This document shows, piece after piece, positions 6,171 through 57,875 of a stretch of DNA of 64,000 nt; positions within the stretch are counted from its first letter, which is position 1; every line of letters begins with the position of its first letter. Origin of the DNA: a virus (taxonomy: Duplodnaviria; Heunggongvirae; Uroviricota; Caudoviricetes); the IMG/VR virus record IMGVR_UViG_2541047850_000005, positions 3,554 through 67,553 of that record. One strand, given 5' to 3'. The translations under genes and the position numbers were made by a program. The notes beneath the pieces are model-generated. The model saw only the letters and a program-made list of their open reading frames with translations, made no database searches and was not told where the DNA came from.

Positions 6171-6322
6171 TCCAAAACAAGTTGTTTTCTTATGTGGCTT
6201 ATTATCTCTAACAACAAAAGGCAGAAAACAAATTGTTTTAGGTACTGTGTAAATCAGAAGGGATTGTGTCTATATGAAAATGCCCGGCGTGTTGCCGGGC
6301 ATTGCGAAGAGAGGTTGCTTAA

Positions 6323-8356
6323 TTACTTAACCTGGTGACCAGGTTTAGCACCAGCATCCGGGCTTAACAGGAAGATATCTTTCCCACCAGGACCAGCAGC
6401 CATCACCATGCCTTCTGAGATACCGAAACGCATTTTACGCGGAGCCAGGTTAGCCACCATAATGGTGTGACGACCAATCAGTGCCTGTGGGTCTGGATAA
6501 GCAGAACGAATGCCGGAGAAGACATTACGCTTTTCCCCACCGAGATCCAGTGTCAGACGCAGCAGTTTGTCAGAGCCTTCAACAAACTCCGCGTTTTCAA
6601 TCAGCGCCACACGCAGGTCAACTTTGGCGAAGTCGTCAAAGGTGATGGTTTCCTGAATCGGGTCGTCAGCCAGTGGGCCAGTTACCGGTGCGGCTGTGGC
6701 TTTCACTTCTTCTTTGGATGCTTCCACCAGTGCTTCCACCTGTTTCATATCGATGCGGTTATACAGCGCCTTGAACGGATTCACTTTGTGGCCCAGCAGC
6801 GGTTGCTGGATACCATCCCAGGTCAGTTCTGTATTGAGGAATGCTTCTGCGCGCTCGGTCAGTTTCGGCAGTACCGGTTTCAGGTAAGTCATCAGCACGC
6901 GGAACAGGTTAATGCCCATAGAGCAAATCGCCTGCAGATCGGCATCGCGACCTTCCTGCTTCGCCACCACCCACGGAGCCTGTTCATCGACATAGCGGTT
7001 AGCCAGGTCAGCCAGTGCCATGATTTCACGGATAGCTTTACCAAATTCGCGGCTTTCCCATGCTTCGCCAATCACTTCAGCGGCATCAGTAAAGGTTTTG
7101 TACAGTTGCGGGTCAGCCAGTTCGCTTGCCAGCACGCCGTCAAAACGCTTGTTGATAAAGCCTGCATTACGGGAGGCCAGGTTAACCACTTTGTTCACGA
7201 TATCGGCATTCACTCGCTGAACGAAATCTTCCAGGTTGAGATCGATATCATCAATGCGCGAAGAGAGTTTCGCAGTGTAGTAGTAACGCAGGCTGTCGGC
7301 GTCAAAATGATTCAGCCAGGTGCTGGCTTTAATGAACGTGCCGCGAGACTTGGACATCTTCGCACCGTTCACCGTCACATAGCCATGAACAAACAGGTTG
7401 GTCGGCTTGCGGAAGTTGCTGCCTTCCAGCATGGCAGGCCAGAACAGGCTGTGGAAGTAAACGATATCTTTACCGATGAAGTGGTACAGCTCGGCGGTGG
7501 AGTCTTTCTTCCAGTATTCATCGAAGCTGGAGGTGTCGCCGCGTTTGTCGCACAGATTCTTGAAGGAACCCATGTAGCCAATCGGCGCGTCCAGCCAGAC
7601 GTAGAAATATTTGCCCGGCGCGTTCGGAATTTCAAAACCGAAATAAGGGGCGTCGCGGGAGATATCCCACTGTTGCAGGCCAGATTCAAACCACTCCTGC
7701 ATTTTATTTGCCACCTGCTCCTGCAACGCACCGCTGCGGGTCCATGCCTGCAGCATTTCGCTGAAAGAAGGCAGATCAAAGAAGAAGTGTTCGGAATCAC
7801 GCATTACCGGCGTAGCACCAGAAACTACCGATTTCGGCTCGATCAGTTCAGTCGGGCTGTAAGTCGCGCCGCAGACTTCACAGTTATCGCCGTATTGATC
7901 TGGCGCTTTACATTTAGGGCAGGTGCCTTTTACAAAACGGTCCGGCAGGAACATGCCTTTTTCCGGGTCGTATAACTGAGAGATGGTGCGGTTTTTAATA
8001 AAACCGTTCTCTTTCAGGCGAGTATAAATAAGCTCGGACAACTGACGGTTCTCTTCGCTGTGCGTCGAGTGATAGTTGTCATAGCTGATGTTAAAGCCTG
8101 CAAAATCAGTCTGGTGTTCCTGACTCATTTCGCCAATCATCTGTTCCGGTGTGATACCAAGCTGCTGTGCTTTCAGCATGATCGGTGTGCCGTGGGCATC
8201 GTCGGCACAGATGAAATTAACCTCGTGGCCGCGCATTCGCTGGTAACGAACCCAGACATCAGCCTGGATGTGCTCCAGCATATGGCCGAGGTGGATTGAG
8301 CCGTTAGCGTACGGCAGCGCGCACGTCACCAGAATTTTCTTCGCGACTTGGGTCAT
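6323..8356 (-). CDS. metG: methionine--tRNA ligase (MetG), E. coli-type
   Basis: 677 aa from [41 protein letters not shown]…; class I aaRS HIGH/KMSKS (KMSKS present), C-terminal tRNA-binding domain; from memory near-identical to E. coli MetG. The ORF track's 43-residue N-terminal extension (to 8485) is rejected. Confidence 0.95.
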
Positions 8357-8513
8357 AGTAGGCATTACTTCTTTGTAGTGAAAAGGGGCTTGATAGTAAC
8401 AAAATGGCCTTATGTCTGCCATGTGATAACAGCATTTCTCATAAATGATTAAATGCCGTAGCTGGAGTACACTACAAGGCGACAATTGCGCAAATTAAAA
8501 TAAAGGAGACGGG

Positions 8514-9614
8514 ATGAGCGAGTCCAAATCGCCGGATGCCCTGAGAGCAATGGTAGCCGGTACGCTGGCTAATTTTCAGCACCCAACCCTGAAACACAAC
8601 CTGACTACGCTTAAAGCGTTACACCATGTTGCGTTGATGGATGACACACTGCATGTCGAACTAATCATGCCTTTCGTGTGGAATAAGCCTTTTGAAGACC
8701 TGAAAGAGCAATGTAGTGGTGATCTGCTCCGTATCACTGGCGCAAAGGCTATCGACTGGAAGCTGTCGTACAACATTGCCACGCTTAAGCGCGTCAAAAA
8801 CCAACCAGGCATTAATGGCGTTAAGAACATTATCGCCGTCAGCTCAGGCAAGGGCGGCGTTGGTAAATCCTCCACGGCGGTAAACCTGGCACTGGCGTTG
8901 GCTGCTGAAGGTGCGAAAGTTGGTATTTTGGATGCCGATATCTACGGGCCATCAATTCCAACCATGCTTGGCGCGGAAAACCAACGTCCAACCTCACCGG
9001 ACGGTACTCACATGGCACCGATTATGTCTCATGGACTGGCAACCAATTCAATTGGTTATCTGGTAACTGACGACAATGCGATGGTGTGGCGTGGTCCGAT
9101 GGCGAGCAAGGCGTTAATGCAGATGTTGCAGGAAACTCTATGGCCTGATCTGGACTATCTCGTTCTCGATATGCCGCCGGGTACTGGTGATATTCAGCTG
9201 ACGCTGGCGCAGAACATTCCTGTAACTGGTGCTGTTGTGGTAACTACGCCGCAAGATATCGCGCTGATCGATGCGAAGAAAGGCATTGTGATGTTCGAAA
9301 AAGTCGAAGTGCCGGTACTGGGTATCGTCGAAAACATGAGTGTGCATATTTGCAGTAACTGCGGTCATCACGAGCCAATTTTTGGCACCGGTGGCGCACA
9401 GAAACTGGCCGAGAAATACAACACGCAGTTGTTAGGCCAAATGCCACTTCATATCTCTCTTCGTGAAGATCTGGATAACGGAACACCAACCGTTATTAGT
9501 CGTCCAGATAGCGAATTTACGGCTATTTATCGTGACCTTGCAGATCGCGTTGCTGCCCAAATGTATTGGCAAGGTGAAGTAATACCTGGCGAAATCGCAT
9601 TCCGCGCAGTGTGA
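8514..9614 (+). CDS. apbC: Fe-S cluster carrier ATPase ApbC/Mrp
   Basis: 366 aa with Walker A SSGKGGVGKSSTAVNLA and CxxC (CSNCGHH) motif; divergent from metG as in the E. coli chromosome. Confidence 0.93.
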   Translation: MSESKSPDALRAMVAGTLANFQHPTLKHNLTTLKALHHVALMDDTLHVELIMPFVWNKPFEDLKEQCSGDLLRITGAKAIDWKLSYNIATLKRVKNQPGINGVKNIIAVSSGKGGVGKSSTAVNLALALAAEGAKVGILDADIYGPSIPTMLGAENQRPTSPDGTHMAPIMSHGLATNSIGYLVTDDNAMVWRGPMASKALMQMLQETLWPDLDYLVLDMPPGTGDIQLTLAQNIPVTGAVVVTTPQDIALIDAKKGIVMFEKVEVPVLGIVENMSVHICSNCGHHEPIFGTGGAQKLAEKYNTQLLGQMPLHISLREDLDNGTPTVISRPDSEFTAIYRDLADRVAAQMYWQGEVIPGEIAFRAV

Positions 9615-9651
9615 TAAAAAGGTGGTGCAATGCACCACCTAAACAGTTCTC

Positions 9652-10041
9652 CTACATCACAGGACAATCATCAAACTCGCCACTTCTTGCGTCGTTGATA
9701 ATGTGAGTGATCACACCAAACACGGCATTGCTGCCCGTGCATCCATCATCATCCTTTGGCAATGCTTCCTTCTTACCAGTTCTTAAATCCTCCAGATGCT
9801 GACGTGGATACTTCCGGTATCTTTTTACGCGATATTCCCCATCCAGAGCACATACAAGAAGAGATCCATCAACAGGAGTGAGTGAGGAATCGACCACCAG
9901 CAATGCACCCTGCAATATTCCCTCACGATGATGGCTATCAGCTGCCCTCAAGAAGTAGGTCGCTGAAGGATGTCTAATTATCTGCTGATCAAGAGAAATA
10001 CGGCTCTCAGCATAATCCGCCGCAGGAGAGGGGTACCCCAT
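9652..10041 (-). CDS. UmuD'-like S24 peptidase domain protein (N-terminally pre-truncated)
   Basis: MGYPSPAADYAESRISLDQQIIRHPSATYF… aligns with E. coli UmuD from Gly25 onward ([29 protein letters not shown]); Ser (DSH) and Lys (RVKR) of the catalytic dyad retained; in-frame stop 3 codons upstream of the ATG. Confidence 0.7.
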   Translation of the reverse strand: MGYPSPAADYAESRISLDQQIIRHPSATYFLRAADSHHREGILQGALLVVDSSLTPVDGSLLVCALDGEYRVKRYRKYPRQHLEDLRTGKKEALPKDDDGCTGSNAVFGVITHIINDARSGEFDDCPVM

Positions 10042-10059
10042 AGCGTTTTACCTCAAAAA

Positions 10060-10079
10060 TACTGTTTATCTGTACAGTA
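10060..10079 (-). promoter_or_regulatory. LexA (SOS) box
   Basis: TACTGTTTATCTGTACAGTA = CTGT-N8-ACAG, 19-38 bp upstream of the UmuD'-like start. Confidence 0.65.
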
Positions 10080-10198
10080 TACATTAAAGAAGCACCTTTG
10101 GTGCATTAGAGAAATGCAAAACGATAATAGAGGCTAAATCGAGGTAGAAAACACATTGTTTAAGGCCACTAATTGTGGCCTTAATGGAGAGGGGATGC

Positions 10199-10762
10199 TT
10201 ATTGGCTATGGCTAAAAATCAAATTAGACACTTCATGTGGTTGTAGCTCGTCAAGATCCGGTGCCACAAAACCTTTTCCGAAAGACTTCACAAGTGATTC
10301 ACCAGCCGCATCATTGTCACCTATTACACGAAAGTCATACGGCAGCATTGCCAGTTGACGACGTAATCCTGCTGAGAAAGTCGAACCTAACAGCGCCCAC
10401 GAATTTCCGCCCGCGTTGTGCACTGCTGCACTTTTAAAAATCGACTCAGTTATCCATATCGGTCCATCTTTTAAAGGAAGATAGGTTCCCCATAGTAGCT
10501 GTCTGCCGTGCGCTCGTGTGAAATACCGGGCCATCTTCGGATTGCTGTGCTGCTTAGGAGCGCCTGGTCTGTATGTCTGATACCCGGCCAACATCCCATC
10601 AAACCTGTATAGAGGGAATGTAACAACTCCTTCGCTTTCATCGATCCACTGTCTATATGGGTGTATATCATGGCGGTAGTTACGAGTCAGCAAATGAGCT
10701 TCCAGCTTTCCAAATTTGGTCATAACTTCGCATCCCTCATAACACTTCCCATTTATCACCAT
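10199..10762 (-). CDS. Toprim-domain protein (primase-like), hypothetical
   Basis: WITESIF (conserved Glu) and VIGDNDAAG (DxD) resemble the DnaG-type Toprim fold; true start may be the internal MTKFGK. Confidence 0.4.
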   Translation of the reverse strand: MVINGKCYEGCEVMTKFGKLEAHLLTRNYRHDIHPYRQWIDESEGVVTFPLYRFDGMLAGYQTYRPGAPKQHSNPKMARYFTRAHGRQLLWGTYLPLKDGPIWITESIFKSAAVHNAGGNSWALLGSTFSAGLRRQLAMLPYDFRVIGDNDAAGESLVKSFGKGFVAPDLDELQPHEVSNLIFSHSQ

Positions 10763-40059: not shown

Positions 40060-40590
40060 TATGCTGTCAGCGGTGAAATGTATGCTATCAGCGGCTATTT
40101 TTCTGAAAAGTATGCTGTGAACGGTTAAAGATATGCTACCAGCGGTATAGTGAGATAAACGTATGCTGTGAGCGGTAAATCATCTATCACCACTCAATGC
40201 TCTTTTATACCTCCCCAGTGGTTACTAACCTCGAAGAGTGCATTCCATATAGGTTTGCGCTCACTAACATTCTATTCCCATTGCGCTGATTACTTGTAGT
40301 GAAAGGTATTTATTGCCTGCTGCTCCCTGATAGAACGTATGCTGTCAGCGGTGTTTTATTGAGGAATTTTTGTTTGGATATGCTATCAGCGGTAATTAAT
40401 GGCATATGTCAGACCTTCGTATGCTGCCAGCGGTAATTTTGTTCTGGTTATACCCATACCGGTACACATTATTCATGCAATGTCTTAAGTATGCTGTCAG
40501 CGGTAAAAAATCGAGTAAAGTATGCTGTGAGCGGTGAGATAGACTCTCGATATGCTATCAGCGGCAGTTGATTGTGTATGCTGTCAGCGG
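40060..40590 (+). repeat. downstream iteron array (incA-like control locus)
   Basis: 12 copies of TATGCT(G/A)(T/C)(C/G)A(G/A)CGG(T/C) in two clusters (5 + 7) with irregular 3-170 bp spacing; same unit as upstream of the rep gene. Confidence 0.75.
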
Positions 40591-56390: not shown

Positions 56391-56777
56391 ATGTCTGACA
56401 AAAACATTGAATTTATAGAAAGTCGCTATGCTGCTTTTATCGCAGGGCTGATTGAATCCTCACCTATGAGTCAGGCCCAAATAGCCAGACTTATTGGTTA
56501 TAAAAATGCCAACAACCTTTCTTTAATTAAAAGTGGTAAAATTCCTTTGCCTATCGATAAGGTTCGTCCGCTGGCGTTGGCGCTGGGTATTGAGCCAAGT
56601 CGTCTTATGATGATGGTGCTGGAAGAACGCCAACCTGAACTCGCAGCATTTTTATACAAAGAAGGCACCGCTCCTCTTAACGAGGACGAAAAACAGGTTC
56701 TTGCTGCATATAACGAGCGATTCGGTAAAGAGAAAGGCGCATCACAAAAGGTTGTTGAGGCCATAAAGTCTCTATGA
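56391..56777 (+). CDS. XRE-family helix-turn-helix transcriptional regulator
   Basis: …SQAQIARLIGYKNANNLSLIKSGK… HTH signature; 128 aa; convergent with the recombinase gene. Confidence 0.65.
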   Translation: MSDKNIEFIESRYAAFIAGLIESSPMSQAQIARLIGYKNANNLSLIKSGKIPLPIDKVRPLALALGIEPSRLMMMVLEERQPELAAFLYKEGTAPLNEDEKQVLAAYNERFGKEKGASQKVVEAIKSL

Positions 56778-57875
56778 AAAATTTAGACGAATAAGCTCTG
56801 TTGATAGACGATCTCCCTTGAATTTGTGGTCAATTTCGTCTAAATCCGGTTGCTCTACGATTGATGCGATGTACGTTGAGAAACTTTCTAAGGCGTCTCG
56901 CATCTCGTCCATATAATCGTGCCGGTCGTAGACCCGATCTATCCCCTCAAGACTGTGGTTCATGATTTTGCGTGATACCTCCTGGCTTATGCCTAATGCT
57001 GGGAAGTAACTACGCGCAGTACGACGCAAATCTCGGGGTGTAAATGGCGCAAGCTCCATCAGTTCTGGTCGTTCCAGAATACGACGTAATGCCTGGGCTA
57101 TTGCCACTTTAGACATAGGAAGGTCTTTCCCGATTTTTTTATTCGAAGGCACGAGCCACTGGCTGTCTTTACCGTATTCGAACAACTCTTCAATGCATGT
57201 GCGCATTAATGTGCTTAAAGGCAGCGAATGCTCACGTGCTGACTTGTTTCTCTTGCCTTGATTCCAAACTCCACGCTTAAGATTGAACTCACTTTTTTTA
57301 GCCCTCAGTACTTCGTCAGGTCGTCTTGCTGATACAAGACACAGCCTGGCCGCCCATTTTGTACCAGCGCACACATTGAAGTAGTCCCATATATTCCAGA
57401 ACACCCATACCTCTGCGTCGGTCAGCTTCCGCTCGCGAGGTGTGGGCTTTGCGCCACCGGCAACTTTGTTTAGTGACATATCGTTTAACGGTGACACGTC
57501 TATCATCCCCTGGAAGGCGCACCAGCTAAGGAACTGCTTCATCAGAGAGAAAACGCGGCGGCCCATAACAATTTTGCCATCCAGTATTAGTGGGTTGACC
57601 AGTTGGTTCACCATGAACCTATTAATGTCACTTACTTTTACATCGGCAATGTGCGGCAAAACATGTATCAAAATACAATGAACAGCGATCTCTGGCCGAC
57701 GTCTGGTTATCAGCAGAGATAAGCGAGTGAATAACATGAATGCGTCCGAGAATTTCATATCATTGCTAACCTGCGAGATCATAACGGCCTGCATTTGAGA
57801 TGCTCTTTCGAGATACTCAATCGCCTCTTTTGAGGTGTTCTCAGCAGCGCGTGCTCTGTCAAAGCTATTTTTCAT
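56772..57875 (-). CDS. tyrosine-type site-specific recombinase/integrase
   Basis: 367 aa; candidate catalytic Arg (ARRPDEV), RDLRRTARSYF and HSLEGIDRVYDRHDY fit the R…H-x-x-R…Y pattern. Confidence 0.75.
   Translation of the reverse strand: MKNSFDRARAAENTSKEAIEYLERASQMQAVMISQVSNDMKFSDAFMLFTRLSLLITRRRPEIAVHCILIHVLPHIADVKVSDINRFMVNQLVNPLILDGKIVMGRRVFSLMKQFLSWCAFQGMIDVSPLNDMSLNKVAGGAKPTPRERKLTDAEVWVFWNIWDYFNVCAGTKWAARLCLVSARRPDEVLRAKKSEFNLKRGVWNQGKRNKSAREHSLPLSTLMRTCIEELFEYGKDSQWLVPSNKKIGKDLPMSKVAIAQALRRILERPELMELAPFTPRDLRRTARSYFPALGISQEVSRKIMNHSLEGIDRVYDRHDYMDEMRDALESFSTYIASIVEQPDLDEIDHKFKGDRLSTELIRLNFS

Follow-up and report, generated by a model that had tools for sequence, protein, structure and literature searches.

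In Escherichia coli, UmuD is made as a 139-residue precursor that undergoes RecA-filament cleavage at Cys24/Gly25, carries the motif G-D-S-M together with Lys97, and is co-transcribed with umuC under SOS control by LexA. The plasmid and ICE homologues MucA, RumA, ImpA and SamA are mobile accessory subunits of Y-family polymerases under LexA-family regulation (PMC7092418, PMC8460599). These proteins are full-length and cleavable, and are encoded in an operon with their own polymerase gene (mucB, rumB and others). HumD differs from them in being neither cleavable nor paired with a polymerase gene. The humD family has been named since 1999, has been partly characterised and is routinely annotated. 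Work by McLenigan in 1999 reportedly found mutagenesis and UV survival to be restored by HumD in suitable mutants, and HumD to form dimers and to bind UmuC and RecA filaments; P1 HumD is said to have complemented well only from a high-copy plasmid, and to have had low steady-state levels. The P1 genome record carries the note 'DNA repair; functionally complements E. coli UmuD'' on humD. In PMC7092418, HumD is described as an already-activated, shorter UmuD, and a CRISPRi screen classed humD as non-essential in the lytic growth of P1 (PMC10695390).

We analysed a gene of this kind in a 64,000-nucleotide stretch of viral DNA (the window). The gene is an unremarkable representative of the known HumD family, with the following coding sequence and translation signals.

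9652..10041, minus strand: humD coding sequence, 129 amino acids plus stop, encoding a pre-processed UmuD'-type protein
10050..10048, minus strand: in-frame TAA, 3 codons 5' of the humD ATG at 10041 (TAA AAC GCT ATG)
10054..10051, minus strand: GAGG Shine-Dalgarno sequence, 9 nt 5' of the humD ATG, kept in P1

The open reading frame list and reading of the sequence give a protein that begins MGYPSPAADYAESR..., and translation of the minus strand gives the 129-codon product as MGYPSPAADYAESRISLDQQIIRHPSATYFLRAADSHHREGILQGALLVVD...EFDDCPVM. This product passed the NCBIfam equivalog model NF051876 ('HumD family translesion DNA polymerase') with 215.5 bits against a cut-off of 120 (E = 1.7e-64), and the match was full length, with residues 1-129 on profile positions 1-129 of 129. 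Its score fell below the cut-off of the self-cleaving UmuD subfamily model NF007621 (84.9 bits, cut-off 110) and far below that of the LexA model TIGR00498 (29.4 bits, cut-off 110.95), where profile positions 89-166 only were matched. Peptidase_S24 was the only Pfam domain (E = 4.4e-10). The 129-residue product consists of this S24 domain alone, and the N-terminal winged-helix/HTH DNA-binding domain of LexA and phage CI-type repressors was not found in it. The best matches among solved structures were E. coli UmuD' (1umu, E = 1.9e-22; 1i4v; 1ay9) and UmuD bound to the RecA filament (8gmt), with which the product shares the S24/LexA-type C-terminal fold. An AlphaFold model, which served solely to confirm the UmuD' fold, was of moderate quality (pLDDT 68.7), with confident core residues 26-115 and both termini below 50; its best PDB fold matches were again UmuD'.

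The first-pass annotation, made from the DNA letters and their translations, had claimed that the protein starts where RecA-mediated cleavage would cut UmuD, and that an in-frame stop three codons upstream precludes an N-terminal arm. Both claims were borne out. The product begins M-G-Y-P-S-P-A-A-D-Y, like the G-F/Y-P-S-P-A-A-D-Y arm of UmuD', and its residue 2 (Gly) aligns with UmuD Gly25, which is residue 1 of crystallised UmuD' (1umu). The TAA at 10050..10048 rules out an N-terminal arm or cleavage site in this reading frame. Alignment to the UmuD family, which the first-pass annotation had proposed as a check, gave a match to residues 25-139 of E. coli UmuD at 41% identity (tblastn with the full-length protein), and no trace of UmuD residues 1-24 was detected upstream of humD in this search. 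An upstream non-canonical start giving a full-length UmuD, which had been raised as a possible objection, was ruled out by the TAA at -3 codons and by the tblastn search without a match to residues 1-24. An in-frame stop lies 3-9 codons upstream of the start in 78 of 80 related humD loci. Among 120 homologues from a large protein collection, 103 start with M-G-F-P-S-P-A or -V, and the sequence M-G-F-P-S-P-A(-x-D) is near-invariant at the HumD N-terminus; most of the longer homologue calls hold M-G-F-P-S-P internally, consistent with over-extended gene calls. Compared with UmuD, the product has no precursor arm, has lost GDSM, carries a 12-13-residue acidic C-terminal extension, and is encoded without umuC. 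Comparison with P1 humD gave dN = 0.049 and dS = 0.98 (dN/dS = 0.05), and humD is under strong purifying selection. A pseudogene reading of humD was rejected on the same ratio.

The 3' and 5' flanks of the gene contain the following predicted regulatory features.

10060..10079: LexA (SOS) box, TACTGTTTATCTGTACAGTA, 18 nt from the humD ATG, predicted from the sequence
10076..10105, minus strand: candidate weak sigma-70 promoter of humD, putative and from a relaxed scan, with -35 TGCACC at 10105..10100, an 18-nt spacer and -10 TATACT at 10081..10076
9620..9640, found on the minus (humD) strand, between the converging humD and apbC ends: G+C-rich hairpin from a terminator scan, with a 9-bp stem of which 6 pairs are GC, then TTTTAT

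A good LexA box just upstream of the gene had been noticed in the first reading, and the predicted box stood up to closer analysis. Read on the humD strand (10079..10060) it is TACTGTACAGATAAACAGTA, and both arms are a perfect match to the E. coli consensus TACTGT-N8-ACAGTA. This pattern, with 12 specified bases, occurs twice in the 64-kb window, against 0.00 expected from 100 dinucleotide-preserving shuffles; the looser pattern CTGT-N8-ACAG occurs three times, against 0.88 expected. A CTG-N10-CAG box ends 16-19 nt before the ATG in all 80 IMG/VR humD loci, which are relatives of at least 90% identity. These loci have 18 distinct box sequences, all with the CTG and CAG cores, and the variation falls chiefly in the spacer while the arms are mostly kept, which is the pattern expected of a selected operator. 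Since the scan of viral contigs gave only humD relatives of at least 90% identity, divergent phages were taken individually (n = 7). In six of the seven (P1, N15, phiKO2, HK639, BTP1 and Aeromonas phage pAEv1818), a LexA-type box precedes the start codon by 34-64 nt; in the remaining one, HK140, an extra small ORF intervenes. The P1 record annotates a 'LexA binding site in the regulatory region of lxr and humD', ending 19 nt before the humD ATG, and the phiKO2 record likewise carries an annotated lexA site at the homologous position.

A strict sigma-70 scan of 9500-10300 found no promoter, and the relaxed scan gave only the weak candidate listed above, so the humD promoter can be offered only as a putative one. 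Its -10 element, TATACT, shares bases with the left arm of the LexA box. In BTP1 this position is taken by an equivalent TTGATC-N16-AATACT, and the candidate in the window falls within the ~55 nt upstream of the box that the window has in common with P1. At the other end of the gene, the hairpin at 9620..9640 is likely the terminator of humD, and it may also serve apbC. A further short hairpin, GCACC-AAA-GGTGC followed by TTCTTTAAT, lies directly upstream of the LexA box (window 10092-10104, minus strand); it is kept in P1 and forms the 5' edge of the DNA common with P1. This hairpin may act weakly as an insulator or terminator that limits read-through from the toprim gene upstream, or may just belong to the -35 region.

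We compared the product with proteins encoded by deposited phage genomes using tblastn. An identical protein is already in GenBank, as the annotated 'error-prone repair protein' of Escherichia phage PhiR41_1 (100% identity). The proteins of phages Cyrano and CMS-2020a are 97-98% identical, HumD of P1, P7, RCS47, SJ46 and D6 90-91%, the UmuD-like proteins of phiKO2, N15, HK140, HK639 and BTP1 61-70%, and an Aeromonas phage protein 49%. The HumD of P1 and P7 (P1 gp103) has the same length of 129 amino acids at 90% identity, with the M-G-[FY]-P-S-P-A start and the EFDDCPV tail; its gene is preceded by a LexA box equally far from the ATG, and umuC is absent. P1 HumD differs by 13 amino acid changes, including F3Y, and its gene has different neighbours: in P1, humD lies between the divergent lxr and the phd-doc operon, whereas here its neighbours, on a phage-plasmid of ~108 kb, are a toprim-domain gene on one side and a captured apbC-metG block on the other. 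In DNA alignment, the sequence common with P1 runs from ~55 nt upstream of the box (window ~10105) to the stop codon. The promoter, operator and gene thus form a cassette common to otherwise different elements.

The more distant UmuD-like proteins of N15 (gp26), phiKO2 (gp23), HK140, HK639 and BTP1 also have the pre-processed start, the EFDDCPV tail and an upstream LexA box (with the small intervening ORF in HK140). Their genes occupy a moron-like site near tail-fibre, integrase or partition genes, with no umuC nearby. These proteins differ from the product described here in their 61-70% identity, HK639 has Met at the position equivalent to Lys97, and in phiKO2 and HK140 the humD homologue is paired with dinI. 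The product of dinI is a RecA-filament-binding protein. In both phiKO2 (locus L087, 2181-2884) and HK140 (locus L089, 1910-2890) the humD homologue adjoins a divergent dinI, and in phiKO2 the annotated LexA site lies between the two genes; together, humD and dinI make up a small moron pair that modulates SOS.

The window runs collinear with the circular PhiR41_1 genome of 108 kb, at 99.7-99.9% identity, and the same region is present on ~109-kb plasmids in complete E. coli assemblies. Two places depart from this collinearity. At window 40505-40575, a stretch of ~70 bp has no megablast match to PhiR41_1, and the matches on either side of it have a 16-base overlap in phage coordinates; at window 63423-64000, the last ~580 bases depart from PhiR41_1, past phage position 81093 and close to a 'mobile element protein' fragment. 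Among the genes of the element are those for ribonucleotide reductase, thymidylate synthase, DHFR, Pol III alpha and epsilon, a RecA-like protein and ParA, as well as lambda-like tail genes. The Pol III alpha gene shows ~80% identity to those of Klebsiella phages, for example ST13-OXA48phi12.3. Such a gene content is expected of an SSU5-type phage-plasmid, which, from gene content alone, we take the element to be. Literature searches turned up nothing useful on PhiR41_1 or on humD in SSU5-like elements.

No umuC-like gene follows humD. As the first-pass annotation had reported, the 3' end of apbC is found there instead:

8514..9614, plus strand: apbC/mrp, convergent with humD, its downstream neighbour

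In tblastn searches with E. coli UmuC, the best E value was 4.4 for the window and 4.2 for the complete 108-kb genome of PhiR41_1. No umuC match was found at E <= 1e-3 in the ±4-kb flanks of the 80 related viral loci, nor at E <= 1 in the flanks of the 7 divergent phages. The apbC gene belongs to the phage-plasmid and not to a host chromosome: a junction between host chromosome and prophage was considered and rejected, since the window is collinear with the circular 108-kb phage genome. Window ~6322-9614 holds full-length metG (minus) and apbC/mrp (plus), divergent as on the E. coli chromosome, and ends just before the humD cassette. Along 3298 bp, up to about the stop codon of apbC, the pair is 88.7% identical in DNA to E. 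coli K-12 mrp-metG, with protein identities of 98.8% for MetG and 94.8% for Mrp. The metG-apbC pair is captured host-type cargo under strong purifying selection.

We consider that the gene is very probably humD, a phage or phage-plasmid version of umuD that is translated directly as activated UmuD'. In an undamaged lysogen, humD would be kept off by host LexA on its box, which overlaps the weak promoter or lies against it. Upon DNA damage, RecA would be activated, LexA would cleave itself, and humD would be transcribed with the host SOS regulon. Methionine aminopeptidase favours an initiator Met that is followed by Gly at position 2, and the M-G-Y-P-S-P start would in this way probably be trimmed to the same N-terminal Gly as that of RecA-cleaved UmuD'. 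HumD would then dimerise and bind host UmuC and RecA to give a Pol V-like translesion polymerase. The slow RecA-filament-dependent cleavage of UmuD would be bypassed, and host UmuC would receive an active partner at once. The presumed benefit would be that damaged phage-plasmid or host DNA is copied during SOS or induction, at the cost of mutations. In a structural model of Pol V, one UmuD' places the arm at its N-terminus inside UmuC, with the extreme N-terminus near the active site (PMC12926913), and this insertion would account for the near-invariance of M-G-F-P-S-P-A-x-D in HumD.

The first-pass annotation had suggested either that the protein supplies active UmuD' to host UmuC or that it titrates host UmuD, UmuC and RecA. 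The role as a UmuD' surrogate is better supported than the titration role. It agrees with the published description of P1 HumD, which is 90% identical, and with the passing of NF051876, and it is not a new idea. Counting against it are the negative strict promoter scan, the non-essentiality of humD in P1, the reportedly low levels of HumD, and the extra tail. Reading of the sequence had by itself recovered a real regulatory and functional unit, a LexA-controlled orphan humD.

Alternatively, HumD could act mainly as a modulator, either as a heterodimer with UmuD or by occupying UmuC or the RecA filament, and could lift the UmuD2C checkpoint, reduce recombination, or adjust RecA* activity and, through it, prophage induction. 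We regard this as unlikely. A modulator would suit an element with no cognate UmuC, and would fit the work by McLenigan in 1999, in which native HumD levels were reportedly low and complementation at low copy number weak; the position of dinI, another RecA-filament modulator, beside humD at the same LexA site in phiKO2 and HK140 also argues mildly for it. However, the complementation of UmuD' noted in the P1 record is a positive effect and not an inhibitory one, and the UmuD'-type N-terminal arm is strictly conserved, in keeping with its productive insertion into UmuC (PMC12926913).

The role as a UmuD' surrogate has also to be reconciled with the C-terminus of HumD.

9652-9696, minus strand: humD C-terminal tail, the last 15 codons of humD

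The HumD family carries an extension of 12-13 residues past the end of UmuD, I-N-D-A-R-x-x-E-F-D-D-C-P-V-[MIL], that is invariant or nearly so in 23 diverse members. Of 22 pre-processed representatives, 12 carry a related acidic tail, which no N-extended one has (0/32), and the tails of some relatives end in ..EFDDTPF, ..DDTPF, ..DNLPF or ..FHDNLPF. The C-terminal tip of SSB is DFDDDIPF. The apparent resemblance of the HumD tail to this tip is a lead and not a result, and the tail hints at an extra partner, or a different one, from those of UmuD'. One conjecture, to which we give a low probability, is that the HumD lineage, with its protease site decayed and an acidic tail gained, could use the tail to dock HumD or HumD2-UmuC onto SSB-client proteins or Pol III subunits. 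If true, such docking would provide a recruitment route for phage-made Pol V that host UmuD' lacks. SSB-like tail docking was not found described in the searchable literature, a scope that excludes the primary HumD paper, and the conserved acidic tail of HumD may be a new point.

A stronger version of this conjecture would have HumD acting through the tail on a partner other than UmuC, such as an SSB-interacting protein or Pol III alpha or beta, possibly the element's own DnaE-type polymerase. We think this very unlikely. The confinement of the tail to pre-processed forms (12/22 against 0/32 N-extended), the ..DDTPF and ..DNLPF endings that recall DFDDDIPF, and the presence of Pol III alpha and epsilon genes on the phage-plasmid are consistent with it, but this support is purely one of sequence resemblance, and the tail is of low confidence in the structure model. 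N15, the lambdoid phages and BTP1 have the same tail, yet no DnaE gene was present in their ~2.5-kb flanks, and to our knowledge these phages are without any DnaE gene. A degradation tag or a contact with UmuC or RecA is an equally possible role for the tail.

A further claim of the first-pass annotation, that the protein keeps the Ser/Lys dyad, was likewise confirmed.

9934-9948, minus strand (humD): codons of A-D-S-H-H
9823-9825, minus strand (humD): codon of Lys73

Ser35 and Lys73 of the product do align with Ser60 and Lys97 of UmuD. However, G-D-S-M of UmuD is replaced by A-D-S-H-H together with a one-residue deletion. Among 104 close HumDs, 50 have Ser at the nucleophile position, 53 have Thr and 1 has Ala, and the residue equivalent to Met61 is His in 90. 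Among cluster representatives drawn from 1.84 billion proteins, ~20 separate 50%-identity clusters contain pre-processed M-G-F-P-S-P forms, and we scored the active-site state of these distant representatives by direct motif inspection. The distant pre-processed forms mostly lack the motif and the Ser, and their Lys is often Arg, Val, Cys or Met. The N-extended UmuD types (n = 32), in contrast, have G in 31, S in 29, M in 28 and Lys in 30, with D or E at motif position 2 in 26. With GDSM lost, and the dyad not conserved across pre-processed relatives, the Ser/Lys dyad of the humD product is best read as a relic and should not be taken for retained protease function. A protein with nothing to cleave would have lost selection on its protease site, and the family-wide decay of this site in HumD may be a new point.

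It is scarcely credible that the gene is a decaying, 5'-truncated umuDC remnant, or encodes a still self-cleaving S24 peptidase or a LexA-like regulator, as the S24 domain with Ser35 and Lys73 and the naming of some homologue records as 'LexA family transcriptional regulator' might suggest, given a dN/dS of 0.05, the gene's own Shine-Dalgarno sequence, ATG and LexA box, kept across hundreds of elements, the lack of a DNA-binding domain with 29 bits against a cut-off of 111 for the LexA model, and the lack of a cleavage site, the loss of GDSM and the replacement of the dyad in many pre-processed relatives.

Genes of this type are common in E. coli. We found humD-like DNA in 892 of 5426 complete E. 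coli genomes (~1 in 6), and 738 of its 954 places were on plasmids, mostly P1-like and SSU5-like phage-plasmids. Such phage-plasmids also spread resistance genes. With humD-like DNA in about one sixth of complete E. coli genomes and on elements that spread resistance, a pre-activated Pol V subunit from a phage could increase the mutagenesis that damage induces in clinical strains.

A second near-consensus LexA box, TACTGTATAAGTAAACAGTA, is at window 57902-57921; besides it and the humD box, the window has no further TACTGT-N8-ACAGTA (0.00 expected). It lies ~27 nt upstream of an ORF at 56772..57875 on the minus strand, which encodes 367 amino acids and has a PhiR41_1 counterpart annotated 'integrase'. 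The position of this predicted box suggests SOS control of a recombinase on the phage-plasmid.
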